A DNA stretch of 64,000 nucleotides from a virus (taxonomy: Duplodnaviria > Heunggongvirae > Uroviricota > Caudoviricetes). The notes under the pieces were generated by a model. The model saw nothing but the letters and a program-made list of their open reading frames with translations. It was not told the origin of the DNA and did no database searches. Where the stretch lies: positions 28,944 through 92,943 of IMG/VR virus record IMGVR_UViG_3300043172_000799; one strand, 5' to 3'. Positions 16,248 through 30,798 of this stretch are shown here, in pieces; the first letter of the stretch is position 1; each line of letters opens with the position of its first letter. Position numbers and translations under genes: made by a program.

Positions 16248-17006
16248 GTGTCAGAAGAAGATAATAAAGAAGAACTCACCACAAATCAAAAGAAATCTCA
16301 GGCTCAGCGAAAGAGATGGGATAGGAATGCAGAGATAACCACTGGGAAACACTCTGATAGAAGATCCAAACGATATGACTTCAAATGTTTTGAGGGAATT
16401 AGATTATCTGCCATGCAAAAAGAGTTTGTGGTGCGGTTCATGGACCCCCCATATAATGGAATTAGAAAGAATCGCTACAAAGCATATTTGGAAGCAGGAT
16501 TTACAGCATCTAATGATAATAGCTTAAAAGCAAATTGTACGGCAGCCTTAAATAAAAGCAATATCAAGGAAGCAATCCTAGCATATCAGAAGTACGCACT
16601 TCAAAATTTAAAAATAGAAGCAACCTCACAAAACGTTGATGCCCTGCGATTAAGAGCCACATATTCAGTGTCTGACTTTTATGAGACAGATGGCACTCCA
16701 AAACCTTTAGATAAAATATCTCCAGAAATGCTAGTCGTTATAGATGATATAGATGTTGATTGGAAATTATCTAATAAGGCTGAAAAGAAAATAATTAAAT
16801 ACACGCTGGCTAATCGTGAGAAAGCTATGAAGTCTTTACAAGAAATACTAGGTATTATGAAGACTATGGAGACTATGGAGATCAGTGTGCCGGTTAGTAG
16901 TGGCAAGAATGCTATTGAAAATATAGGACAGAACAAGGATGCAGGTCCTAGAATCTCCATGAATATCACAGTAGGCAATCCTGCGAAGAAGGATTCTGAT
17001 GGCTAA
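16248..17006 (+). CDS. terS: Terminase small subunit
   Basis: Immediately upstream of terL; HTH-like N-terminal region (LSAMQKEFV...YKAYLEAGF) and the typical D(F/L)YxxDGxxKPL / K.L.(N/D)REKA.K.L pattern. Confidence 0.75.
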   Translation: MSEEDNKEELTTNQKKSQAQRKRWDRNAEITTGKHSDRRSKRYDFKCFEGIRLSAMQKEFVVRFMDPPYNGIRKNRYKAYLEAGFTASNDNSLKANCTAALNKSNIKEAILAYQKYALQNLKIEATSQNVDALRLRATYSVSDFYETDGTPKPLDKISPEMLVVIDDIDVDWKLSNKAEKKIIKYTLANREKAMKSLQEILGIMKTMETMEISVPVSSGKNAIENIGQNKDAGPRISMNITVGNPAKKDSDG

Positions 17007-19695
17007 GAAAGATTTAAGGAAAGCAAATAATATTCAAGATGTCAACTTTGACTTTAATTTATCTGAGAAACAATATGAAGCATTAGTTTCAATTGCAACA
17101 GAATTATTTTTTGGTGGAGCAAAAGGAGCTGGCAAAGATCAGGCTTTAGATACATTATTTTTAACTCCAACTGGGTTTAAAAAAAATATAGAATTAAATG
17201 TCGGAGATAGAATATGTAACCCTGATGGATCAATATCTAAAATACTACAAACACATCCAATTGAGAAAAAGAAAAAATATGTTTTACATTTCCGAGATGG
17301 GAGAAAAGCAGAATGCGGTGCAGATCATATTTGGTATGGGGCAAGAAAACATAACAAGTATCAGAGTTCTTGGAACGAAACAGGATGCACAAAAACAGCT
17401 AAAGAGATATATGCAATAACTAAAAGAGAAAAATTGAAATCTAAAAGAGAATGGTTCCGAATACCATTACCAAATCCTGTTAAATTTGATAACATTTATC
17501 AAAATAACAGAACAATTGAACCTTATTTGTTGGGAGTACTACTTGGAGACGGTTGTATTACAGGAAATAACCAAACTAAAATTTCTACAGTAGATCAAGT
17601 GCATATGCTATCACAATTTTCTGAATATAACTTTAGAATTGTAGACTTCTCTAAATATAATCTTGAAAAAAACAAAAACTTATTTGATTTATTTTTTACT
17701 GGGACACAGTGGAAAACTTTAGATAAGAATCTCAATAAATTAGGATTATTAGGAACCAGAAGTGCTACTAAGTTTATTCCAGAAGAATATAAAATTGCAC
17801 CCAAAGAAGTCAGGTTAGCTGTGTTACAAGGATTATTAGATACGGATGGAAGTGTAGATTGTAGTACTAGAAATGTAAGATACAGTTCTACATCCTTTCA
17901 ATTAGCAGAAGATGTTGCTTGGTTGGCTAGAAGTTTAGGCTTTTACGCTTCTGTACAAATAAAAAAAGCAAGAGATAAAGTAGAAAAAGATGGCACAATA
18001 TACCATTGCAAAGAAGGAAGAATAGTTTTTATACGAACATATAATGATTCACAATTATTCAGACTGGAAAGACATAAAGACAAAGTAAAATCTGGAGTAG
18101 TAAGACCATTAGGATTATCCGTTGTAGATGTTACAATAGAAGAAGAAGTTGAGATGAGATGTATTTCAGTAGACAATCCCAACGGTTTGTACATCACTGA
18201 AGAGTTCATAGTTACACATAATTCACATCTTATCAGATATGCTTCTATATTATATTGTCTGGCAGTACCAGGACTTCAGGTATACCTATTTAGACGAACC
18301 AGTAAACAAGTTAGATCTAACCATCTATATGGATCTACTGGATATCTTAGTGTGCTCAAGCCATTTATAGATGCCGGAGTTGTAGATATAAATCAATCAG
18401 ATAATAGAATAGACGTTTTTCATGAGGGAAAAGCAACATCTTCTATATTTCTCAGGCATCTGCAACATGAATCAGATGTTGAGATATATAGGGGCTGTGA
18501 AATCCATTTTTTAATAATGGATGAGCTTACACATTTTACTTCTTATCAGTATAAGACTCTTAGAAGTTGTGTACGTTTAGGTTTGAAGATTGACTATACA
18601 GAATTACAGAAAATGTATCCTTTTATGGTAGAAGGATTTTTTCCGAGGATATTGTGTGCATCAAATCCAGGATCTGCTGGACATTCATGGGTTAAAGCAA
18701 GTTGGATTGATAGACTTGTTCCAAATGTTATAGAGAGGATGCCTGACGAGGACGGAGGCATGTTACGGCAGTTCATCCCTGCTAAACTTGAAGACAATTA
18801 CCATCTTATGGAAAGTGATCCATCATATAAGGCAAAACTTATAGGTGTAGGTGGAGATGCTTCTAAGGCTATGCTCGATGGAAATTGGGAGATTGCAAGT
18901 GGATCTGCATTGGCAGATTGTTGGGATAAACGGTTTAACGTGATGCCACCATTTGATATACCTTCAAGTTGGGTAATAGATAGAGGTTTTGACTGGGGAT
19001 CAGCCAAACCTTTCGCTTGCTGTTATTTCGCTGAAGCATCAGGATCTACTGCTACTCTTCATAATGGTAAGACATTCACTCCACCAGAGGGGACAATATT
19101 TATGATTGGGGAACTGTATGGAAACAATCCGGCAGATTCAGACCCAGACACGGGAGGCAAGTTATCTGCCAGACAGATAGGAGCTAGGATAAAAGAATAT
19201 GAGGGATCTGTAGAATGGGGGCATAGAGTAAGGGCAGGAGCAGGAGATGGTCAGATATTTGAGGCAAATAGAGCAGGAACAGAGGAATGCATAAATGATA
19301 ATCTACTGAAAGGATATAATCTGGAAATAGTAGAAGGTGATCATGCTTCTTACATTAACCAATATACTGAGGAATTGTTCACAAGAGCAGATAAATCAAA
19401 AGGATCTCGCAAAAAAGGATTGGAGCTTTTACGCTCTTATCTAATAGATGCTCACTGGCAAGAAATAATTAGTGATACTCCTGAGAAGAATGAGTTTATA
19501 CCACCGGAGGAAGCAGGATTGGTATTTTTTGAAAATTGCAAGAATGCTATAAGAACTCTTCCTACTATTCCAAGAGATGAGCATGATCCAGAAGATGTGA
19601 ATACAGAAGCACCCGATCATATATATGATGTTGTTAGATACCGTCTGGCATCTAATAGACCAAAATTTACAAGGCTAACCCTATTAGGGGTGTAG
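16999..19695 (+). CDS. terL: Terminase large subunit containing an intein
   Basis: Walker A GGAKGAGK|S split by the intein, Walker B FLIMDELTHF, ASNPG coupling motif, nuclease DRGFDWG and DHIYDVVRY. Confidence 0.95.
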   Translation: MAKKDLRKANNIQDVNFDFNLSEKQYEALVSIATELFFGGAKGAGKDQALDTLFLTPTGFKKNIELNVGDRICNPDGSISKILQTHPIEKKKKYVLHFRDGRKAECGADHIWYGARKHNKYQSSWNETGCTKTAKEIYAITKREKLKSKREWFRIPLPNPVKFDNIYQNNRTIEPYLLGVLLGDGCITGNNQTKISTVDQVHMLSQFSEYNFRIVDFSKYNLEKNKNLFDLFFTGTQWKTLDKNLNKLGLLGTRSATKFIPEEYKIAPKEVRLAVLQGLLDTDGSVDCSTRNVRYSSTSFQLAEDVAWLARSLGFYASVQIKKARDKVEKDGTIYHCKEGRIVFIRTYNDSQLFRLERHKDKVKSGVVRPLGLSVVDVTIEEEVEMRCISVDNPNGLYITEEFIVTHNSHLIRYASILYCLAVPGLQVYLFRRTSKQVRSNHLYGSTGYLSVLKPFIDAGVVDINQSDNRIDVFHEGKATSSIFLRHLQHESDVEIYRGCEIHFLIMDELTHFTSYQYKTLRSCVRLGLKIDYTELQKMYPFMVEGFFPRILCASNPGSAGHSWVKASWIDRLVPNVIERMPDEDGGMLRQFIPAKLEDNYHLMESDPSYKAKLIGVGGDASKAMLDGNWEIASGSALADCWDKRFNVMPPFDIPSSWVIDRGFDWGSAKPFACCYFAEASGSTATLHNGKTFTPPEGTIFMIGELYGNNPADSDPDTGGKLSARQIGARIKEYEGSVEWGHRVRAGAGDGQIFEANRAGTEECINDNLLKGYNLEIVEGDHASYINQYTEELFTRADKSKGSRKKGLELLRSYLIDAHWQEIISDTPEKNEFIPPEEAGLVFFENCKNAIRTLPTIPRDEHDPEDVNTEAPDHIYDVVRYRLASNRPKFTRLTLLGV
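17137..18222 (+). mobile_element. 362-aa intein with LAGLIDADG homing endonuclease (class 3 signature)
   Basis: Inserted between K46 and Ser of Walker A; ends IVTHN|S; LAGLIDADG motifs LLGVLLGDG and LQGLLDTDG; W in block B (DHIW), C in block F (MRCI), T in block G (VTHN). Confidence 0.92.
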
Positions 19696-19708: not shown

Positions 19709-21481
19709 ATGGGATTAGAAAATTTACTAAACCACCCCTTAGTGGGAATAAAAGAAAGAGGACAGATTTTAAATTTCTCTGTTAACACTATGCATCCAGA
19801 ATATACAGAATGGACACCTATTTGGAAAAAATGTAGAGATGCAAGAATAGGGCAGCGTGCAATAAAAAGTGCAGGGATAACTTATCTCCAAAAAATGAAT
19901 GGGCAAAGCCCACAGGAGTATGAGAACTATAAAGAGAGAGCACAATGGTATGGTGCTACTGGACGTACTGTAGAAAGCTACTTAGGTATGATATACAGAA
20001 AAGAACCACACATTGTAATTAAAGAGAGTAAAAGTTCTACGAATGTAGTTGAAAAAGAACTTTTTGATAAAGATGTTTACTACTCATTGACATCCTCCAA
20101 AGGGAAATCTTTCAGTTCTTTATCTAGAGATGTAGTGGAAGAGCTTATTGTGGTAAATAGAGTAGGAATGCTAATAGATTATCCTTCCATAGATCCAATG
20201 TTATTAGAGGGTATGAGTAAATTTGATTCTGAAAAGATGAACTACAAGCCATTGCTTTCTATGTATAAGACAGAAAGTATTATAAACTGGCACTATGAGT
20301 ATATTAATAATATCCCTATTCCTGTACTATTTGTTCTTAAAGAAGAAATATACGATACTGCTTCTATGGGAGCACTATCACCTACAAAAGTAGATTCTTA
20401 TAGAGTATTATTCTTAGAACCGTATTTCCCAGAAGATGGGGTATTAAGAGGAAGATATAAAGAAATGTCTTTCATCGAAACAACTATTAAGGAGAGAGGT
20501 GTAGAGATTTTAGTTTCTTCAGCAACTAATATTGGGTATCCACAAAAAGATGGGGAATATATTGACCATATCCCGTTCTATATTATGACAGATACTGGTA
20601 TAGAATTCACAGAAATAAAAGACAGTATGATATATGACTTATCTGAAACTAATATTGGACACTATCGTAATAGTGCTGATTGGGAGAATGAACTTCACAT
20701 TGTTGGTGCTAAGACTGCTATATTTCCAGGTTGGGATAAGAAGACTAATGGTAATCCTGTACTGGGAGGGGCACTTGCTTGTTCTAAAGGTTGTGAGCCT
20801 TATATGTTGGAAGCTTCCTCAGACAGTGGTAATCAAAAAGAAATGGATGCTAAGGAAATGCGAATGAGTGTTTTAGGTGCTGAGAGGATATCCCAGAAAG
20901 GACGATATATGCCTTCTACCGAGACAGCTAAATTAAATACTTCCAGTGAAGCATCTACATTGACGGGTATGGCTACATTTGCCAGTGAAGCATTCTCTGA
21001 AATATTAACAGAGCAATTACAATGGGATAAGAATAATGATTATGTTGTAGATTTGACATTAAATACGGATTATTATCTCGATGATATTTCTGGAGATGAG
21101 TTACTTAAATGGATGGATGCGTACCAAAGAGGTGGTATTTCTTATGATATTTATTATTATAATTTAGAGAAAAAAGAAGCTTTTCCTCCTGAATGGGATA
21201 AGGAGAAAGAATTGGCATCTTTAGAAGAATCACTTGAAAGACAAACAAATCTTCAGGATGAAAAATTCATATCATTATCTGAAAGACTAGCAGAATTGGA
21301 AGATGTAAATTCCACAATTACAACTACCTCTACTGGAAATACTATGATGTCACTTTCTACAGCAGAAAAAGGGGCTGGTCAATCTACCAGTGTAGAATTG
21401 GATACTTCTAAACAGCGTAACAATGAGACTTCTGGAACTGGTGGAGCAACACCTATAGAAACAGAAGAAATTGAAGAATAA
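19709..21481 (+). CDS. Portal protein (DUF4055-like)
   Basis: Follows terL; HPEY..W..W..CRD..G...IK.AG..YL...YENYKERA.WY.ATGRT pattern. Confidence 0.88.
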   Translation: MGLENLLNHPLVGIKERGQILNFSVNTMHPEYTEWTPIWKKCRDARIGQRAIKSAGITYLQKMNGQSPQEYENYKERAQWYGATGRTVESYLGMIYRKEPHIVIKESKSSTNVVEKELFDKDVYYSLTSSKGKSFSSLSRDVVEELIVVNRVGMLIDYPSIDPMLLEGMSKFDSEKMNYKPLLSMYKTESIINWHYEYINNIPIPVLFVLKEEIYDTASMGALSPTKVDSYRVLFLEPYFPEDGVLRGRYKEMSFIETTIKERGVEILVSSATNIGYPQKDGEYIDHIPFYIMTDTGIEFTEIKDSMIYDLSETNIGHYRNSADWENELHIVGAKTAIFPGWDKKTNGNPVLGGALACSKGCEPYMLEASSDSGNQKEMDAKEMRMSVLGAERISQKGRYMPSTETAKLNTSSEASTLTGMATFASEAFSEILTEQLQWDKNNDYVVDLTLNTDYYLDDISGDELLKWMDAYQRGGISYDIYYYNLEKKEAFPPEWDKEKELASLEESLERQTNLQDEKFISLSERLAELEDVNSTITTTSTGNTMMSLSTAEKGAGQSTSVELDTSKQRNNETSGTGGATPIETEEIEE

Positions 21482-21926: not shown

Positions 21927-23015
21927 ATGTCAACAGCAACAAATCAATTGCAGGATCTATCTGTAAATAATCAGCATTTAATTGAGCAACATAAAAATGA
22001 AATTATTTCTACAATGCTGATCTTTTTTAAGCATATGGAAAAACTAATAAATAAGGAAATAAAAGCATCATTTGATGATACAAAAACAATAGTGGATAAG
22101 AATGCATTAAAAAGGAGATTAAATGTAATTCAGGAAAGGGAATTAAATAAGATACAAAAACAGATAACAAAGGATGTACATAAATTTTTAGGATCACAGG
22201 CAAAGAACTATGAAAAACAATTGAAAGGTGTCTTGAAAGACGTTTCTAAATATATAAAAGTGCATAGTATTAGTGAGAAAGCTTTGAAACATAATTATGA
22301 TAAAGAGCCTATTGTTATGGAAAAAGGATCATACAATACACTTGCTTCTTTATGGGCCACTTTCTTTCTGAGTGTAAGAACCAATTTAAATCAGAACACA
22401 GAATCTGCATATAAGTTAAAGAAAACTACCAGAGAGTATACTAGTGATTTAAATAGAGGCTATAAAATTAGTGAAAATAGTTTGAATGGGATTATAGCCG
22501 TATATATACAACAGGCAGTTGGAAGTGCAGCCAAATCTGTTAATGGTGTAAATGAAGAGTTCATTCGTGGGTATTCATGGAGTTCCGTACTTGACAGTAA
22601 AACGAGTGATTTTTGTATTTCTCACGCATATAGATTTTGGATTTATAATCACCCTGAATTGAGTACATTAGAAGCAGAGATTTACAGCCCTGCCCATTTC
22701 CGTTGCCGTGCCAGTAACCCCCCAATAATAAAATCATATAGAGAATTAGGAATATCTGCCAGTGAATTAACAACATCTCAGAAATCACTATTGGCAAATA
22801 GTAAAACAGAGACATTGACCTACAATCAGTTTTTTGAAAGACAGACGGAGAGTGTGAAGAAGGAAATATTAGGAGTTGTGAGATATAATGCATACCAACA
22901 AGGAAACTTAGATGTTTCTGCGTTCTATACAAGAGATGGAAGAAAACTCACATTAAAACAACTAGAAAAAAAGAATATTCAGATAGCAGATGAATACTTG
23001 AGATATGTCAATTAA
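21927..23015 (+). CDS. Head morphogenesis protein (Mu gpF / SPP1 gp7-like)
   Basis: SVLDSKTSDFC and PAHFRCR motifs; follows the portal. Confidence 0.88.
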   Translation: MSTATNQLQDLSVNNQHLIEQHKNEIISTMLIFFKHMEKLINKEIKASFDDTKTIVDKNALKRRLNVIQERELNKIQKQITKDVHKFLGSQAKNYEKQLKGVLKDVSKYIKVHSISEKALKHNYDKEPIVMEKGSYNTLASLWATFFLSVRTNLNQNTESAYKLKKTTREYTSDLNRGYKISENSLNGIIAVYIQQAVGSAAKSVNGVNEEFIRGYSWSSVLDSKTSDFCISHAYRFWIYNHPELSTLEAEIYSPAHFRCRASNPPIIKSYRELGISASELTTSQKSLLANSKTETLTYNQFFERQTESVKKEILGVVRYNAYQQGNLDVSAFYTRDGRKLTLKQLEKKNIQIADEYLRYVN

Positions 23016-23224: not shown

Positions 23225-23289
23225 CAGTAACAGAATGGTTATTAGAGAAACAGCCTAATCCAATTGGAAGTGACAATTTTTATGGGTGA
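23221..23289 (+). pseudogene. Orphaned 5' end of the phosphoesterase gene (MTVTEWLLEKQPNPIGSDNFYG*)
   Basis: Strong AAGGAG RBS; aligns with N-terminus MTRIQWLLGNIPNPTESSDFYY of ORF 24417. Confidence 0.7.
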
Positions 23290-24445
23290 GGCAGTGGTAG
23301 AGCAATTTGATACATTTACTGTAGATATTCCCCTTCTATCAAAAACACATAAATCCTATTATAAGGCATATATGTTTTTAAAGACGGGACTATTATATTG
23401 CACTAAATGTGGAGAATTGCTAGAGTTTGATAAATTTGGCAGTAAGAAAGAATGTATCCCATTCTACAAAAGAAGTCAATGTCTTGACTGTGAGAATAAG
23501 ACCAGAGGTTTCTCATACAGAAATGAAAGTCTGACCTCTAAAAGATATGCTAATGATGGGATACCAAATACATTATTTAATGATTTTGAAGTTTTGCATC
23601 AAGATGATGCAAAACACCTACCAAAAAGCCAAAAGACATACTACAGATTGTACATGTTTTTAAAAGAAAAACTTTTATACTGTGGTAAATGCAATAAACT
23701 GTTAGATATAGATAAGTTTCGATTAGATGACAAAAAAGTATTATTTGGTAGGAGAACTTATTGTCATGCTTGTGAGCTTAAATACTCTAGAAGTACGAAT
23801 GTTAAGGAAAAGCGTTCAAATAACCATAAGCTAAAGTATGTAGAAAATAGAGATCACATTTTAGAATATCAGGAAGAATATCGACAGAATAATAAAGAGA
23901 AGATATCTAAAAGGAATAAGAAATATAGAAAAGAAAATAAAGATAAAATAAAAGAATGGCAATCGGAATACTATAATGAGAATAGAGATGAGAGAATTAA
24001 ATATGTTATTGGGTATACAAAGAAAAGAAGAAAGAAAGACCCATATTTCCGAATGAAATTGATTTATAGGAAACAATTGTGGAGAGTGTTTGCTGGAGAG
24101 GAAAGAGAAATAAGATCAAAGGAACTGTTAGGGTGCAGTTACGAGGAGTTTTTAGAGTACTTGGAACTCCCAGAAGGGAAAGAGTATACAGACTTTGAAT
24201 TAGACCACGTAATACCCATAGAAGCCTTTAACATTTGTGAGGATAGTGAGAAAATTTTATGTTCTCATTACACAAACTTTCAATTATTATCTAAACGGGA
24301 TAACAGAAGTAAGAGTGATTTCTGGGAAGGAATAAGGTGGAGAGATGTAAGTCCAGAAGATAAGAAAAGTGCAAGATTAGAAATATTAAACAAAATAAAA
24401 AGGGGAGCTATTAACAATGACAAGAATCCAGTGGTTGCTAGGTAA
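23282..24445 (+). CDS. Free-standing HNH homing endonuclease
   Basis: Two CxxC Zn-ribbon repeats, EYR.EN.EKI coiled repeats, ELDHVIP...CSHYTNFQLL...DNRSK HNH core. Track start is TTG 23264; ATG 23282 is the likelier start. Confidence 0.88.
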   Translation: MGEAVVEQFDTFTVDIPLLSKTHKSYYKAYMFLKTGLLYCTKCGELLEFDKFGSKKECIPFYKRSQCLDCENKTRGFSYRNESLTSKRYANDGIPNTLFNDFEVLHQDDAKHLPKSQKTYYRLYMFLKEKLLYCGKCNKLLDIDKFRLDDKKVLFGRRTYCHACELKYSRSTNVKEKRSNNHKLKYVENRDHILEYQEEYRQNNKEKISKRNKKYRKENKDKIKEWQSEYYNENRDERIKYVIGYTKKRRKKDPYFRMKLIYRKQLWRVFAGEEREIRSKELLGCSYEEFLEYLELPEGKEYTDFELDHVIPIEAFNICEDSEKILCSHYTNFQLLSKRDNRSKSDFWEGIRWRDVSPEDKKSARLEILNKIKRGAINNDKNPVVAR

Positions 24446-25628
24446 TATACCAAATCCAACAGAATCTTCAGATTTCTACTATTTGATGGATGATTTCTCA
24501 GCAGAGTTTGGGGAAACTCCCATTGATAATTTCAAGAGATACGCCAGAAAAGCTATGGGAGAATACAGAGATCAAACATCTCCAGAAAACACACTAACAA
24601 CAGAAATTACAGATAATGGGTTAGAAGTAAAATTAAAATCGTTTGGGATAACTACAGAAGAAGGAATCAGGAAACAAGCAGGATTATCCGTAGAAGAATG
24701 GGATTGTTCTGCTTTCAGGGTAAAATCCTCCCAGAATGAACAGAACCCTTGGCATTCAGTTAATGCTGAATTCCGAAAGAAGAAGGAGCTTGCATTTCCC
24801 CTAATTCAGCAAGCAGAAGTTAAGATAGAGCAATATGAAAATGTTGCTAGAAAACCATCAGACACAACAGTAAATGTATCTGATCTCCATGCACCGATGC
24901 ATGATGAGAAAGCTATGGATATCTCTATACAGGTTATGAAAGACCTATATCCTTCAACCGTAGTTATAAACGGAGATGCATTAGATCTTACTGATTTCTC
25001 TGATAAGTTTTTAGCGTCTTTGGAATGCCGAAATCAAACACAGAAGGGAATCAATGCCGTTGCAAAGTATATTGGGCAGATAAGACAGGTTTGCCCAGAA
25101 GCTAAAATAGTATTTATGGAAGGGAATCATTCAAATAGAATGAGAAAAGTAATCCTTAAAAATGTAGCAGGAGCTATAGGATTAAAGAGAGCTGATAATC
25201 TTGATGGATATGAAGCCCTTTCCGTACCAAATCTTCTTTGTTTAGATACGCTAGATGTAGAATGGCAACCATATCCTGAAGGTGAGTATTGGGTTAATGA
25301 GAATTTAAGATTTCATCATGGAGAGAAATTAAACTTAAACAATATAGCTAATGAAAGTTTTGTAAACCAAGTAATGGGGCATAATCACAAGCATCTCATG
25401 GTAAGTAGGACAAAGCATATATACAATGGCAGGAAGCAGATATGGGTAGCTTCCTTCGGATGTATGTGTATGATGGATGGGAGTGTTCCTTCAGTAAGTA
25501 GCCATTCTGATTGGCAGAGTGGCTTTGGGGTTGTGTATCATACAGGAACTACTTGCCAGCCTATCCCTATTTACATCGAAGATGGGAAAGCTTTATTTGA
25601 AGGCAAGGTTTATGAGGCTAGAATTTAA
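24417..25628 (+). CDS. Calcineurin-like metallophosphoesterase
   Basis: SDLH, NGD, EGNH, HHG, GHNH motifs in canonical order. Confidence 0.88.
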   Translation: MTRIQWLLGNIPNPTESSDFYYLMDDFSAEFGETPIDNFKRYARKAMGEYRDQTSPENTLTTEITDNGLEVKLKSFGITTEEGIRKQAGLSVEEWDCSAFRVKSSQNEQNPWHSVNAEFRKKKELAFPLIQQAEVKIEQYENVARKPSDTTVNVSDLHAPMHDEKAMDISIQVMKDLYPSTVVINGDALDLTDFSDKFLASLECRNQTQKGINAVAKYIGQIRQVCPEAKIVFMEGNHSNRMRKVILKNVAGAIGLKRADNLDGYEALSVPNLLCLDTLDVEWQPYPEGEYWVNENLRFHHGEKLNLNNIANESFVNQVMGHNHKHLMVSRTKHIYNGRKQIWVASFGCMCMMDGSVPSVSSHSDWQSGFGVVYHTGTTCQPIPIYIEDGKALFEGKVYEARI

Positions 25629-25748
25629 ATATACCCTATAAGGTATAAAAGGAGAATATACCCCATAGGGTATAGGATGGAACATCCACAAGGTCAGTAC
25701 AAGTTGTTTCTTTTCGACGAGAGTTTCTTGTACTGATTTAATTTTTAC

Positions 25749-25862
25749 TTGACAGACCCTCTTTCCTGTGGTATGCTTTATAGGCATATTACAGGAGGAG
25801 GGTTTTTTGTTAGTAGATAAAATATTTTTATGCTTGACAAATACCTATTACTGTGTTAGTAT
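25749..25862 (+). promoter_or_regulatory. Two tandem sigma70 promoters upstream of cas12f
   Basis: TTGACA(25749)-N17-TATGCT and TTGACA(25834)-N17-TAGTAT. Confidence 0.8.
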
Positions 25863-25895
25863 TTAAATAGATCAAAAATATAAAGGAGATATTTA

Positions 25896-27239
25896 GTGGG
25901 CAATGTGTTGACAAAGCTGATACAGATAATACCAGATGATGATATTAATGGTACGTATAAAATTATACGTGATTGGATGTACCATAGTACATCACTTGCA
26001 AATCTTATTATGACTGAGACATATGTAATAACACAAAGAGCAAGAGCCTTGTGCACTGCTCAGCCTGAATTAGATTATTTTCAGGCTGTTGCAAAAATGA
26101 AGGTTGAACGTGTTGGAAGTTATATTGGTAAAGTCACAGAAAAGACAATAGGTAGTAGTTTTGGGTATTGTTTATCTAAATCCCCTAATTATGCAGAAAA
26201 TATTCCAGGGGCTATTCGTACCAAAATAGATAAGGTGGTTGGACAACACTTTCAAGCAGATGTAAAAACCAATGGATTGCTGAAGGGAAATTGTTCTCTT
26301 AGATCTTACAGCCGTAAAAACATGGCTGTATATCTACCCAGTAGTAAGGGTGCTTCTAAGTTTACTTGTGAGGATGGTAACTACTATTTTAGTACCATTA
26401 ACAAATTGCGATTTAAAGTATTTTTAGGTAGGGACAATAGCAAAAACAAATTAGCTATTGACAGGATTATTTCTGGTGAGTATAAAATGCCTGATGTATC
26501 CATAAAGATTAAGGATAATAAAATATTTGTATTGGCACCTATAACAATTGAAGTAACAGATTTGGGATTAGACCCAGAGCTATCAGTTGGTGTAGACTTA
26601 GGAATTACTATTCCTGCGGTGTGTGCATTGTCCACTGGATTAGATAGAGCATTTATAGGTAATGGCACTGAGATAGTCAACTACCGTTTTTCTATGCGAA
26701 GAAAGAGAAAAAACTTACAGAAGAGTTTAACATTGTCTACAGGAGGAAGAGGAAGAGGAAAAAAACTAAAAGCATTAGAAAGGATAAGTAGTACTGAAAG
26801 TAATTGGATAAAGACTAAAAATCATTTAATTTCTAAAAAAATTATTGATTTTGCATTGACAAACGGAGCAGGAACTGTTAAGCTTGAATTATTAGAAGGG
26901 TTCACCAAAGAACATTCTTCCAACATTGTGCTAAAAGATTGGACGTATTATCAGTTAGGAGAGATGATACAGTACAAAGCAAAAATAGCTGGAATTGTAG
27001 TAGTACGGATAGATCCTTATCACACTTCACAGACATGCAACGTGTGTGGACATTCTACTAAAGAGAACAGACCTAAAGGTACAAAAGGTCAAGCATACTT
27101 TAAATGTGTGTCTTGTGGGCATAAAACCAACGCAGACCTTAATGCTGCACGGAATATTGCAAAATCGACAAAGATAGTAACTAAGAAGAAGGAATGCCAG
27201 TACCACAAATTGAAAAGTAACTTAATAGAAGTATCTTAA
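25896..27239 (+). CDS. cas12f: Cas12f-like (TnpB-derived, type V-F) RNA-guided nuclease, 447 aa
   Basis: RuvC-I VGVDLG, RuvC-II VKLEL, Zn finger CNVC/CVSC, RuvC-III NADLNAARNI; Cas12f1-like segments DRIISGEY, GGRGRGKK, WTYYQL..I.YKA..AGI.V..IDP..TSQ.C; adjacent CRISPR array. Confidence 0.88.
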   Translation: MGNVLTKLIQIIPDDDINGTYKIIRDWMYHSTSLANLIMTETYVITQRARALCTAQPELDYFQAVAKMKVERVGSYIGKVTEKTIGSSFGYCLSKSPNYAENIPGAIRTKIDKVVGQHFQADVKTNGLLKGNCSLRSYSRKNMAVYLPSSKGASKFTCEDGNYYFSTINKLRFKVFLGRDNSKNKLAIDRIISGEYKMPDVSIKIKDNKIFVLAPITIEVTDLGLDPELSVGVDLGITIPAVCALSTGLDRAFIGNGTEIVNYRFSMRRKRKNLQKSLTLSTGGRGRGKKLKALERISSTESNWIKTKNHLISKKIIDFALTNGAGTVKLELLEGFTKEHSSNIVLKDWTYYQLGEMIQYKAKIAGIVVVRIDPYHTSQTCNVCGHSTKENRPKGTKGQAYFKCVSCGHKTNADLNAARNIAKSTKIVTKKKECQYHKLKSNLIEVS

Positions 27240-27244
27240 TGATT

Positions 27245-27313
27245 CTTCTGGGGCGGTTTCACGTCCTTATGCTGAGGGAGATTTCTCCGCTCTGGCAACC
27301 ACATATTATTTTT
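27245..27313 (+). ncRNA. Predicted compact tracrRNA / omega-like scaffold
   Basis: Hairpin GGGGCG-[GTTTCA]-CGTCCT whose loop is the reverse complement of the repeat 3' end TGAAAC; second stem 27271-27296; CCACATATT (27299-27307) pairs with repeat nt 16-24; followed by a T-tract. Confidence 0.7.
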
Positions 27314-27442
27314 GCGAAGTGGTTACAAACAACACCTTATTTGCAGTAAGATGAGACACAGAGATGTTTTGGTATATTCTTGTATAGGTTCGCACTTTTA
27401 GTGTTGTAAGTACTTGTTTTGGTGAGAGTTATTTTATAGGCA
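27311..27442 (+). promoter_or_regulatory. CRISPR leader (type I-C-like)
   Basis: AT-rich ~130 bp before repeat 1, with inverted TGCGAA (27313) / TTCGCA (27389) and candidate extended -10 TGGTATATT (27370). Confidence 0.65.
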
Positions 27443-27786
27443 GTCACATCTTACATAGGTGTGTGGATTGAAACAGTATTAGATGGAATAGACAAATCCT
27501 TGACTAAGTCACATCTTACATAGGTGTGTGGATTGAAACGACGTATGATGCGAGAGAAGGCAATCAAGGCAGGGTCACATCTTACATAGGTGTGTGGATT
27601 GAAACAATTCTGATTCTGAGTATTTTATTATCTTTTTGGGTCACATCTTACATAGGTGTGTGGATTGAAACCATGCCCTTTTTTGAGACAGACAACTATT
27701 TTAAAGTCACATCTTACATAGGTGTGTGGATTGAAACTGGTATATTGTTGCAATTGTCTCAATCACGTCACATCTTACATAGGTGT
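27443..27786 (+). CRISPR. CRISPR array: 5 identical 32-nt repeats GTCACATCTTACATAGGTGTGTGGATTGAAAC plus a truncated 6th; 5 spacers (33, 34, 34, 34, 29 nt)
   Basis: Repeats start at 27443, 27508, 27574, 27640, 27706; the copy at 27767 has only the first 20 nt. Spacers: AGTATTAGATGGAATAGACAAATCCTTGACTAA; GACGTATGATGCGAGAGAAGGCAATCAAGGCAGG; AATTCTGATTCTGAGTATTTTATTATCTTTTTGG; CATGCCCTTTTTTGAGACAGACAACTATTTTAAA; TGGTATATTGTTGCAATTGTCTCAATCAC. Confidence 0.98.
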
Positions 27787-27885
27787 ACTGAAAATCTTAG
27801 TAAAGGCGATGACTGGGAAGAAGATTTTGAAGAAGAATTAAAGTTTATGGGCAAACACGCCGATGATATAAGTATAAGAAATTAA
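27787..27885 (+). pseudogene. 3' remnant of an HNH endonuclease gene fused to the truncated last repeat
   Basis: Reads TENLSKGDDWEEDFEEELK...*, matching the C-terminal N..K.D.WEE motif of the neighbouring HNH (DNLEKLDKWEEDL). Confidence 0.65.
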
Positions 27886-27888
27886 AAA

Positions 27889-27940
27889 CTGTCTTTTCTC
27901 TCGCGCGAGACTGGCAGAAATGTCAGGAGAGAGGAGACAG
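27889..27940 (+). promoter_or_regulatory. Structured 5' leader sequestering the RBS of the HNH gene
   Basis: 14-bp stem CTGTCTTTTCTCTC/GAGAGAGGAGACAG covering AGGAGA, enclosing hairpin CTGGCA-GAAA-TGTCAG. Confidence 0.7.
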
Positions 27941-27947
27941 GATTTAT

Positions 27948-28799
27948 ATGACAGAAGAAAAATATCTCATTACAGAAAAAGGCAGAGAATGCCCTAAATG
28001 TGGTGAGTTTAAAGAATGGGAAGAATTTGGCAAGAGAAAAGGTAGACCATCTGGATATGCCAGCAGTTGTAAAGAATGTGGCAGGAAGTATGCTAGGAAA
28101 TATTCAAAAAGTAATAAACAAAAAATAAATCAATATGCAAAAGAGTACCGAAGTAACAACAAAGAGCAAATAGAGGAGTATATGGTTGGCTACCGTACTA
28201 CAAATGCTGAGAATACTAAAGAGTATAATAAAAGATATAAGGAAGAAAATAAAGAGTCTCTTAAAGAACATTACTTAGAGAATTTTGAAGCTACAAGACA
28301 TATTAGAGAGCAATATTATTGTAATAATAAGGAAGTGATGCAGTCTAATAATAAGAGATACCGTCACAACAACAAAGAAGGAATAAAAGCTAAAGCCAAA
28401 AGATATGATCTGGAAAATAAAGCTAAACGAAATTATAGAAATAAGGAGAGACGTAAATCTGATCTTAATTTTAAAATAGTTACCAGCTTACGCTCCAGAA
28501 TGGGTAATGCTTTGAAAGCTCAAAATTCTGAGAAATTTTTTCATGCATTAGATATATTAGGATGTTCTCCAGCAGAGTGTGTTAGTCATCTGGAAAAACA
28601 ATTCACAGAGGGTATGTCTTGGAGTAATCATGCAAAAGACGGATGGCATATAGATCATATTAGACCTTGTGCTTCTTTTGACCTAACTATTCCTGAACAG
28701 CAAAAGTTATGCTTCCACTACACAAATTTACAACCTTTATGGTGGTATGATAATTTAGAAAAACTGGATAAATGGGAAGAAGACTTAGATAATGAATAA
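27948..28799 (+). CDS. Free-standing HNH homing endonuclease
   Basis: N-terminal CPKC...CKEC, YRxNNKE repeats, WHIDHIRPCASFDL...CFHYTNLQPLW..DN core. Confidence 0.92.
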   Translation: MTEEKYLITEKGRECPKCGEFKEWEEFGKRKGRPSGYASSCKECGRKYARKYSKSNKQKINQYAKEYRSNNKEQIEEYMVGYRTTNAENTKEYNKRYKEENKESLKEHYLENFEATRHIREQYYCNNKEVMQSNNKRYRHNNKEGIKAKAKRYDLENKAKRNYRNKERRKSDLNFKIVTSLRSRMGNALKAQNSEKFFHALDILGCSPAECVSHLEKQFTEGMSWSNHAKDGWHIDHIRPCASFDLTIPEQQKLCFHYTNLQPLWWYDNLEKLDKWEEDLDNE

Positions 28800-29120: not shown

Positions 29121-29915
29121 ATGCCATTTTTCGACGAAGTAGTAATCCCAAGTTTAAAAGAAGATGTTGATCCAAGTACAATTGAAGTAGGATTCAATGA
29201 GTATGTGACAAAGCAGAATGAGAGTTTTTCAAAGGGACTCAGGGAAAATCGTGATACGATTCTAGAAGAGAAAAAATCCCTAGCAACCCAAATGAAAGAA
29301 GTTCAAGAGCAGTATGCTTTCCTAGAAGGGAAAGAGTTCAATGCTGATGCATATAACAAAATGAATTCGGATTTAGAATCCTATAAATCATCTGCCAATA
29401 AAGATGAAGAAGAGTTTAGACAGCAATTGACCGATCAATATGAAAAAGGTAAAAAGTCTTATGAGGAGACAGTAACCCCGACTATCAATTCACTTAATCT
29501 TAAACTAGAAGAAGCAGTTAAGTCTAGGGATACATACCAGAACCAGTATAAGAACTACCTTAAAGATAGTGCTCTCAGAAAAGCTGTATCAGATATAGGT
29601 GCAGACATGGATGAGTGGACGTTTGAAGGTTTTAAGACTTCAGCCAAGATTGATTATGATGATGGAGGAGGTATCAAAGATATCTCTGTTAAGCATGATG
29701 GTGGATATATCCCAATCGAGGATTGGTCCAAGATCTTCCCAACGACTGACCGAGGCAAGAAAATGATTAAGCAGCCCATAAACGGTCCAGGTGGTGGAGC
29801 AAAAGGGTCAGGATCAGGAACTGGTGGAGCTGTTACTTTAGAAGACATTAATAATATGGAAGATGCTGGGGCACGTAGAGTTGCACTAGCTAAATACATG
29901 GAAGGTAAAAAGTAA
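29121..29915 (+). CDS. Capsid scaffolding protein
   Basis: Acidic coiled coil with Gly-rich C-terminal linker, directly before the major capsid gene. Confidence 0.75.
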   Translation: MPFFDEVVIPSLKEDVDPSTIEVGFNEYVTKQNESFSKGLRENRDTILEEKKSLATQMKEVQEQYAFLEGKEFNADAYNKMNSDLESYKSSANKDEEEFRQQLTDQYEKGKKSYEETVTPTINSLNLKLEEAVKSRDTYQNQYKNYLKDSALRKAVSDIGADMDEWTFEGFKTSAKIDYDDGGGIKDISVKHDGGYIPIEDWSKIFPTTDRGKKMIKQPINGPGGGAKGSGSGTGGAVTLEDINNMEDAGARRVALAKYMEGKK

Positions 29916-29958: not shown

Positions 29959-30798
29959 ATGTCAGTAGAAAATTTTAAACCAACGATTTGGTCAGACCTT
30001 ATTTTTATGGAGTATGACAAATCTTTGGTATTTGCACCCCTGATGAACAGGGATTATGAAGGCGAAATTCAGGCAGGTGGATCATCTGTAAAGATTAACG
30101 AAATTGGTGATGTAACTACCAAAGCATACACAGGAACAGTTGCTTATGAAGATCCAAAGGATGCTTCAAAGTTCCTTCTTATAGATCAGGAATTTTATGC
30201 TGCCGTTAAGGTAGAGGATATTGATCAGGCACAGGCAAAACCAAAGGTTATGGCAAAAATTGCTAATCGTATTGGTGTTTCTCTTGCAGAAACAATGGAT
30301 GAATATCTGGCAAGCCTCTCTGCTGAAGCAGGGATCACTTCCGGTCTAGGTACTGAAGCTGTTCCTATTTCCATCACATCAGCAAATGTAACTAATTACC
30401 TTTCCCTTGTTGCACAGGGTATGGACGAGCAGAATTGTCCACAGGGTGGGAGGGTCGCAGTTGTCCCCCCATGGTTCGTGCAGAAGCTTACACTTGCAAA
30501 AATCACACTTGATACAAACAACAGTGATACACTCTCTACAGGTTTTGTAGGAAACTACTACGGATTTGATTTGTTTATGAGCAACAGTGTAGAGCATAAT
30601 GCGGCAGTTTGGTACAAGCCAATGTTCTTCCTAAGAAATGATTCTATTGCTTTTGCAGAACAGCTTGTAAGAACTGAAGGAATGAGAGCAGAAAATTCTT
30701 TTTCTGATCTTATGAGATCTCTTACAGTATACGGTGGAAAAGTAACTCGTCCAAACTCTTTGGCAGTACTTACATGTGCTTTTGGTGCAGAGAGCTGA
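29959..30798 (+). CDS. Major capsid protein (P22-coat-like family)
   Basis: F.P.IWS...NRDYEGEI...G.SVKIN.IG motif, IDQ..Y.A.KV.DID, YG.KV.RP. Confidence 0.88.
   Translation: MSVENFKPTIWSDLIFMEYDKSLVFAPLMNRDYEGEIQAGGSSVKINEIGDVTTKAYTGTVAYEDPKDASKFLLIDQEFYAAVKVEDIDQAQAKPKVMAKIANRIGVSLAETMDEYLASLSAEAGITSGLGTEAVPISITSANVTNYLSLVAQGMDEQNCPQGGRVAVVPPWFVQKLTLAKITLDTNNSDTLSTGFVGNYYGFDLFMSNSVEHNAAVWYKPMFFLRNDSIAFAEQLVRTEGMRAENSFSDLMRSLTVYGGKVTRPNSLAVLTCAFGAES

Follow-up and report, generated by a model that had tools for sequence, protein, structure and literature searches.

The window analysed here, a stretch of 64,000 nucleotides (nt) from the viral record IMGVR_UViG_3300043172_000799, carries a compact module in which a gene for a Cas12f1-type nuclease, a predicted trans-activating CRISPR RNA (tracrRNA) with a length of ~115 nt, then a leader and finally a CRISPR array with five spacers follow one another in that order on one strand. 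The module is very probably a type V-F1 (V-U3-like) CRISPR-Cas12f interference module of a lytic-type phage, built on a leader-array unit derived from a type I-C system. Phage-borne Cas12f arrays without adaptation genes are already known, and what distinguishes this one is the I-C-derived leader-array unit. The whole record is 168,384 bp long with a CheckV completeness of 100%, and cas1, cas2, cas4, cas5 (Cas5d) and cas7 are absent from this complete genome, Cas8c and Cas3 not having been searched for separately. No Y1 tnpA (Y1_Tnp) was found anywhere in the 168,384 bp, and cas12f is present in a single copy. The lack of cas1, cas2, cas4 and transposase genes, which a first-pass annotation made from the letters of the window had noticed in the neighbourhood of the module, therefore holds for the genome as a whole, and the lack of the three adaptation genes is a feature of V-U3 systems.

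The nuclease gene (25896-27239, plus strand) is defined by its open reading frame, by family models and by structure matches. It starts with a GTG codon preceded 7 nt upstream by AAGGAG and encodes 447 amino acids. The protein is recognized by the Pfam model Cas12f1-like_TNB (E 7e-23) and the NCBIfam model guided_TnpB (E 1e-49). In a phmmer search of the PDB the top match is CnCas12f1 (8hr5, E 6e-64, residues 114-443), followed by Al3Cas12f, RhCas12f, AsCas12f, SpCas12f1 and Un1Cas12f1 (E 1e-56 to 1e-27), with the match to ISDra2 TnpB weaker at 3e-7. An AlphaFold2 model with a mean predicted local distance difference test score (pLDDT) of 85 fits both CnCas12f1 and AsCas12f along their entire length, with template modelling (TM) scores of 0.70-0.82, and TnpB structures with scores of only 0.55-0.58. 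The intact acidic catalytic positions reported by the first-pass annotation are D234 in VGVDLG (RuvC-I), E331 in KLELLEG (RuvC-II) and D414 in NADLN (RuvC-III), and the CxxC...CxxC zinc ribbon consists of C381, C384, C404 and C407; all of them align with their counterparts in CnCas12f1 and are invariant in 16 homologues. Sequence comparison and the structural model together support the identification of the protein as a Cas12f1-type V-F effector, as its likeness to Cas12f1 and TnpB-derived effectors had suggested, and not as a TnpB borne by an insertion sequence. It belongs to the 400-600 amino acid size class of type V-F1, with a RuvC domain that is tri-split and C-terminal, a TNB zinc ribbon and homology to Cas12f1, and next to the effector gene, on its downstream side, comes the array, with a computationally defined tracrRNA between them.

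The short structured RNA seen downstream of the gene in the first-pass annotation is real and has the properties of a tracrRNA, placed by conservation, covariation and cofolding at approximately 27245-27362 on the plus strand. In all homologous loci a conserved RNA block starts just past the stop codon, with the form GGGCG-RUYYCA-CGUCC, a second stem and then ...CCACUC...ACC. In the window, stem 1 occupies 27250-27267 and its loop GUUUCA (27256-27261) complements repeat nt 27-32 (UGAAAC); stem 2 follows at 27270-27297; and a split anti-repeat pairs 27299-27307 with repeat nt 16-24 and 27346-27357 with repeat nt 1-12, leaving a small hairpin between the two parts. The 5' block GGGCG-RUYYCA-CGUCC is present in 10 loci, and its loop covaries with the 3' end of the repeat in four variants: TTTCA with TGAAA (window, L006, L008, L100, L084 and L098), TTCCA with TGGAA (L007), TCTCA with TGAGA (L097 and L099) and TCCCA with TGGGA (L083). 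Because the stem-1 loop and the repeat end change together, pairing between tracrRNA and repeat is supported. Covariation is seen in stem 2 as well, CUGAGG/CUCUGG against GUGAGG/CUCAC being one case. Each locus has an anti-repeat farther downstream, and the most stable duplex of the intergenic region is formed with the repeat of its own locus in eight of nine loci, the exception being L097, and the cofold of the two RNAs has an energy of -52.8 kcal/mol, compared with -41.0 for the two folded apart. No Rfam family scored above noise over 25000-28500. Taken at the level of sequence, these features support a functional coupling of Cas12f to the array through the tracrRNA.

The leader (27363-27442, plus strand) contains TTCGC at 27389-27393, that is at -54 to -50 from the first repeat, and ends in a CA/GT leader-repeat junction. 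The five identical 32-nt repeats, GTCACATCTTACATAGGTGTGTGGATTGAAAC, that had been recognized from the sequence alone start at 27443, 27508, 27574, 27640 and 27706 and span 27443-27737, and to them is added a truncated sixth copy at 27767-27786, identical over its first 20 nt only. The spacers between them are S1 (27475-27507), S2 (27540-27573), S3 (27606-27639), S4 (27672-27705) and S5 (27738-27766), with lengths of 33, 34, 34, 34 and 29 nt. The degenerate copy stands at the end of the array distal to the gene, as expected with a gene-side leader. The identity of the repeats, formerly taken as a sign of activity, is compatible with activity and says nothing further. The first 13 nt of spacer 5 resemble the leader at 27370-27382 in 12 of 13 positions, with complete divergence thereafter; the likeness is probably due to chance, and a match of 13 nt is too short for a Cas12f guide.

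The I-C form that had been ascribed to the repeat proves to be a relationship stronger than form. The array was compared by BLAST with collections of phages and plasmids (INPHARED and PLSDB), and the three of the similar arrays that were checked all belong to genuine I-C loci. These are MT836291 from human faeces (Csd1/Cas8c, Cas7, Cas4, Cas1 and 31 repeats; repeat 27/32 identical to that of the window), Phocaeicola massiliensis OY726013 (Cas5c, Cas8c, Cas7, Cas4, Cas1, Cas2 and array; 28/32) and the Bacillus thuringiensis plasmid NZ_CP032609 (annotated cas3-cas5c-cas8c-cas7c-cas4 beside the array; 27/32). A repeat of the same build is described from Xanthomonas citri (PMC9504256). Relative to the I-C repeats, the 7-bp hairpin of the window repeat is kept by one double change from C:G to U:A and one G-U wobble. 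When the first repeat and the 70 nt of leader before it are aligned without gaps for four Cas12f loci and two I-C loci, TTCGC is invariant at -54 to -50 and the CA/GT junction is present in both kinds of locus; since the similarity extends into the leader, the whole leader-repeat unit, and not the shape of the repeat only, derives from an I-C array. The type I-C ancestry of the leader-array unit is thus supported by its sequence. Both the repeat and the leader are members of the I-C family, and an I-C effector together with cas4-cas1-cas2 was not found in the genome, with Cas8c and Cas3 again not searched separately. One of the comparison loci deserves separate mention: MT836291.1 (L170), an unverified 11-kb entry deposited as 'Bacteriophage sp.', has a complete-looking I-C cas8c-cas7-cas4-cas1 block; it is bacterial DNA that was entered under the name of a phage, or else a I-C system carried by a phage.

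The union of effector and array is older than the phage. The nearest homologues of the nuclease share 60, 57, 51 and 50% protein identity with it, and a tracrRNA and an array lie directly 3' of the gene wherever DNA is available: L006 has the identical repeat in five copies, L008/L009 has a repeat with one mismatch to that of the window, and in L007 the 32-nt repeat has diverged and the tracrRNA has changed to match it. Every close homologous locus therefore carries an array, and the earlier proviso that homologous loci might never do so does not apply. The neighbouring genes in these loci resemble those of phages or plasmids (integrase, HNH, RNase H, ParA, KfrA and a collagen-like fibre protein). 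Since the unit is present at 50-60% protein identity in other contexts (L006, L007 and L008), it predates this phage and arrived as a finished module, and the idea of the first-pass annotation that the array was captured inside a virion head operon, hence within this phage, was rejected. A Cas12f lineage would have joined an I-C-type array, after which the tracrRNA would have evolved to pair with the repeat, and this joining would predate the divergence of the clade formed by this phage and three other mobile-element contigs. As a separate observation, the leader of the 57%-identity relative (L008:3050-3081, L009:1944-1976) contains a degenerate extra repeat, ~63% identical, 39 nt 5' of the first true repeat; regulatory elements of similar appearance, repeat-like and standing alone, have been described from CRISPR leaders.

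The operation of the module can be proposed from these features. Nucleotides 1-24 of the repeat in the precursor CRISPR RNA (pre-crRNA) would pair with the split anti-repeat and nt 27-32 with the stem-1 loop, giving a pseudoknot, and the dual RNA would then be bound by a Cas12f dimer, as in the homologous Cas12f1 complexes that have been solved. By the same homology, the 5' part of the spacer would guide cutting of double-stranded DNA that depends on a 5' protospacer adjacent motif (PAM), with a single RuvC site. The likely use would be the cleavage, in the course of an infection, of mobile elements that compete with the phage or of host DNA.

Several observations weigh against this interpretation. 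A protospacer was found for none of the five spacers: they matched nothing elsewhere in their own phage genome at up to 9 mismatches; the array gave repeat matches and no spacer match among the INPHARED phages and PLSDB plasmids; the exact 22-24-nt 5' parts of all five occur nowhere in IMG/VR; and comparison of the window spacers with all the related loci retrieved, and of the arrays of related loci with the genome, gave matches of chance size only (13-25 nt). No PAM can be derived because no protospacers were found. The DNA of the window occurs in one sequencing run only, a marine sediment metagenome that is probably the source sample, and none of the runs containing it is an RNA run. For the tracrRNA the ends are predictions, and we infer its processing and binding. 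The promoter-like site within the 3' end of cas12f (27210-27237, plus strand, TTGAAA-16-TATCTT), which would place the start of the tracrRNA near 27245, and that for the array (27351-27378, plus strand, ATGAGA-16-TATATT with TG) are both weak matches at 9 of 12 consensus positions. As the array is short and ends in a truncated distal repeat, a static module is conceivable. The exact repeat was found neither in IMG/VR nor in any of 185,579 bacterial species genomes, and in consequence no host with a matching I-C system can be named. Cas1 occurs in 19 of the 35 genomes holding relatives, many of which are incomplete metagenome-assembled genomes, and in the one genome examined, that of Anaerotignum sp. 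MSJ-24, the co-resident I-C repeat is clearly unlike the repeat of the Cas12f array.

Other explanations of the locus share part of this evidence. The array might be mainly a virus-borne I-C mini-array, the crRNAs of which would be cut by host Cas5c and loaded into host Cascade-Cas3 against competing phages, with cas12f an unrelated neighbour or a second user. Mini-arrays with repeats of host type have been described in viruses (PMC11656645), and the I-C family repeat and leader, with a hairpin kept by compensating changes, would suit such a role. The covariation of anti-repeat and pseudoknot loop with the repeat across loci is unexplained, however, if Cas12f ignores the array; the synteny of gene, tracrRNA and array is kept at 50-60% protein identity; L007 retains the tracrRNA pairing with a repeat that has no clean hairpin; and known mini-arrays match the host repeat exactly, whereas the window repeat has no exact counterpart in the species genomes. 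This explanation is considered unlikely. It is far less probable still that the I-C-type repeats serve as RNA decoys (RNA anti-CRISPRs) that tie up host I-C Cas proteins, instead of or besides guiding Cas12f. Viral RNAs with repeats that inhibit host CRISPR complexes have been described (PMC11656645) and the repeats are I-C-like with the hairpin kept, but the regular spacers of 33-34 nt, the dedicated effector and the tracrRNA point to use as guides, and there is no evidence of an I-C system in the host.

A decaying or frozen relic, which arrived by recombination into an HNH endonuclease gene and is now inactive, would account for the truncated last repeat, the short last spacer and the lack of spacer targets in the databases searched, and it has a possible insertion scar in its favour. 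At the downstream boundary of the module an open frame on the plus strand (27787-27885), placed by sequence comparison after the truncated sixth repeat, ends in NLSKGDDWEEDFEEE, in which 9 of 15 residues are identical to the last 15 of the HNH endonuclease encoded at 27948-28799 (E 0.001 in a single comparison), and the frame looks like the tail remnant of an HNH gene displaced by the module. On the other side stand an intact reading frame with all catalytic and zinc residues, five identical repeats, a tracrRNA in which every conserved element is intact, and a GC content equal to that of the flanks; moreover, a degenerate repeat at the end is normal for active CRISPR arrays. A relic therefore seems improbable. 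The generic guided_TnpB subfamily is the best NCBIfam model and many homologues are annotated 'transposase', which would accord with a mobile IS200/IS605-type TnpB that has its own right-end guide and lies beside the array by chance. Such an element was rejected and is given hardly any credence, as there is no Y1 TnpA, the gene is single-copy in the genome, and the downstream RNA is coupled to the array, pairing with the repeat and carrying no guide of its own; nor does the protein side with TnpB, as the first-pass annotation had allowed it might, since its nearest solved relatives are all CRISPR-associated Cas12f1 proteins and all close homologues have arrays.

If the module is an interference module of type V-F1, its supply of spacers has to be accounted for. 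Since adaptation genes are missing from the phage, its array would most likely gain spacers in trans through host I-C Cas1-Cas2-Cas4 acting at the conserved leader-repeat junction. The I-C kind of the leader-repeat unit suggests that the module may depend on host machinery for new targets; the earlier description of it as self-contained is thus apt for interference and not for spacer gain, which must come from elsewhere. In both type I-C and type V systems the PAM-proximal end of the spacer adjoins the repeat-derived 5' handle, so the orientation of the array is compatible with spacer gain from a I-C system in trans. Adaptation in trans through a shared repeat and leader is documented for type IV-A3 systems using I-E Cas1/2e (bioRxiv 10.1101/2023.06.23.546257), and V-U3 Cas12f1 systems have no adaptation genes, yet give plasmid interference in E. 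coli (PMC7229846). A broader and more tentative proposal, which we regard as possible but rather doubtful, is that the Cas12f lineage keeps the I-C leader and repeat so that host I-C Cas1-Cas2-Cas4 loads spacers taken from beside a I-C-type 5' PAM that a 5'-PAM type V effector could also read, that its own Cas12f would then interfere by means of an I-C-adapted tracrRNA, and that the same trick recurs across the Cas12f1 family, in separate clades with I-C-like 32-nt, I-E-like 28-30-nt and Clostridioides difficile I-B-like repeats, a pattern that would mean that a class 2 effector has repeatedly moved onto arrays of class 1.

The origin of effectors by joining a pre-existing array has been proposed as a route and is hard to document (PMC10691335). 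The present locus would be a concrete and datable example of a TnpB-derived nuclease becoming a CRISPR effector by joining an existing array of another type, in which the leader motif, the repeat and a co-evolved tracrRNA are all visible. If a host I-C integrase does feed a phage Cas12f, the in-trans adaptation of IV-A3 by I-E would be extended to class 2 effectors and to phages, and PAM compatibility between I-C and Cas12f systems would be predicted. The practical value is that of one more Cas12f of 447 amino acids with a defined tracrRNA, which is ordinary for genome editing.

Comparison with known systems places the module among the Cas12f1 orthologues. CnCas12f1 (Clostridium novyi, PDB 8HR5), AsCas12f1, SpCas12f1 and Al3/Os/RhCas12f are of the same size class (422-497 amino acids, against 447 here) and have in common with it the full-length fold, the RuvC D/E/D residues, the TNB zinc ribbon, a downstream array with the tracrRNA between, the lack of adaptation genes and an RNA core in which stem 1, a pseudoknot and stem 2 are combined (PMC12255294). 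Across 330 residues CnCas12f1 and the window protein are only ~45% identical, and the latter has an N-terminal part shorter by ~50 amino acids. The window system differs from these orthologues in being phage-borne within a head gene block and in its I-C family repeat and leader, a trait that characterised orthologues such as As-, Sp- and CnCas12f1 may or may not share. With type I-C arrays it has in common the 32-nt repeat composed of GTC, a 7-bp hairpin and GTGGATTGAAAC (27-28/32 identical), spacers of 33-34 nt, TTCGC at -54 to -50 of the leader and the CA/GT junction; in contrast to them, its array lies behind a class 2 effector and a repeat-pairing tracrRNA in a phage genome without Cas1, Cas2, Cas4, Cas5 or Cas7. 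Like the type IV-A3 plasmids, it is a mobile-element CRISPR system without an adaptation module that has a repeat and leader like those of an adaptation-capable class 1 system. The IV-A3 effector is of class 1 and its acquisition in trans has been shown experimentally, whereas here the effector is of class 2, the carrier is a phage and the donor would be I-C. With IS200/IS605 TnpB and its omega RNA (right-end RNA, reRNA) the module shares the ancestral core of RuvC and TNB, as well as an RNA, encoded just 3' of the gene, that has stem 1, the pseudoknot and stem 2; unlike that system, the single-copy window module has neither TnpA nor transposon ends, and its guide is a separate crRNA derived from the array and not from the transposon end.

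Viral mini-arrays have reportedly been treated by Medvedeva et al. in 2019, and a compact CRISPR on a phage genome without adaptation genes is common to these, to virus-encoded CRISPR systems and to the window. Virus-encoded CRISPR systems without adaptation modules have been described (PMC11656645), among them, as far as that review relates it, those of Al-Shayeb et al. (2022, Cell). Arrays, and not Cas1/2/4, are stated to accompany the greater Cas12f branch (PMC10691335). A profile scan of IMG/VR, where a scan with the single protein found none, identified relatives on at least 114 contigs, with arrays nearby in 63 of the best 80, and among more distant relatives in general an array lies within 700 nt downstream in 105 of 225 and upstream in 33 of 225; it is thus common, in itself, for a phage to carry a Cas12f array. 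None of the viral Cas12f loci found in IMG/VR has the I-C-type repeat of the window, and its position between the portal/head-morphogenesis and scaffold/major-capsid genes is unusual. In a limited coverage of the literature, which is not proof of novelty, no statement was found that Cas12f arrays carry class 1-type repeats.

The wider family was placed in a FastTree phylogeny of 128 relatives, which is unrooted, has local support values only and contains 30 unresolved forks, so that the number of repeat switches is not readable from it. I-C-like repeats of 32 nt occur at three separate places, namely the clade of the window, L084 with L098, and L031. A clade of 33 members has mostly 28-31-nt repeats resembling those of enterobacterial I-E systems (the repeat of L017 is identical in 21 of 28 positions to an I-E-like repeat that was found), and a Clostridioides clade lies beside C. 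difficile-type (I-B-like) arrays. The remaining clades have repeats of 36-37 nt, which are usual for Cas12f. The proteins of the I-E-like clade (L017, L029, L058, L090, L094, L101 and ~25 more) are 34-39% identical to that of the window, with repeats such as GTGTTCCCCACAGGCGTGGGGATGAACC, and their arrays start 110-160 nt past the gene, leaving little room for a tracrRNA. In L117 and L225-L229, which come from a Clostridioides difficile chromosome and from contigs of IMG/VR, arrays with 30-nt repeats stand on both sides of the Cas12f relatives, arrays of a 29-nt C. difficile-type repeat are near them, and each locus has several arrays. In L073/L075 (4014-4518) the tracrRNA 5' block is on the gene strand, where the repeats read GTTTCAATC, the reverse complement of GATTGAAAC; the array seems to be inverted relative to the gene. 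In Anaerotignum sp. MSJ-24 (G001, contig C8, 64485-65390 and 78000-96000; L098 and L179) a Cas12f array of 14 repeats and a I-C array of 50 repeats lie 26 kb apart, with the same leader-repeat junction, TTGCT/GTCGC, despite their differing repeats. The Cas12f array of this genome gave one marginal match to phages, which overlaps a repeat.

The surroundings of the module, as assigned by PHROG matches, are those of a virion head gene block. The large terminase (16999-19695), portal (19709-21481), head morphogenesis protein (21927-23015), a first HNH endonuclease (23264-24445) and a metallophosphoesterase (24417-25628) precede it, and the second HNH endonuclease (27948-28799), the scaffold (29121-29915) and the major head protein (29959-30798) follow, so that cas12f and its array sit between the phosphoesterase and the second HNH gene. 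The GC content of the module, 0.34-0.38, is the same as that of the flanks, and no deposited phage has a counterpart of the portal protein with more than 28% identity.

Both sites that the first-pass annotation had read as sigma70 promoters exist upstream of cas12f on the plus strand, each with 10 of 12 consensus positions. Across the region, 8 such sites are observed against 8.8 expected from shuffling, and because this count is not above expectation they are consistent with promoters and are not evidence for them. The first (25749-25777, TTGACA-17-TATGCT with TG before the -10) overlaps a terminator-like hairpin of 17 bp followed by a T run (25762-25808, plus strand), which probably either terminates the phosphoesterase operon that lies upstream or has a regulatory function. 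The second (25834-25862, TTGACA-17-TAGTAT with an extended -10 TG) lies 34 nt 5' of the start of cas12f and is likely to be the promoter of this gene. Directly 3' of the phosphoesterase gene, at 25628-25674, two near-identical palindromic units of 20 nt, AATATACCCTATAAGGTATA and AATATACCCCATAGGGTATA, stand 27 nt apart and could be operator-like or terminator-like elements.

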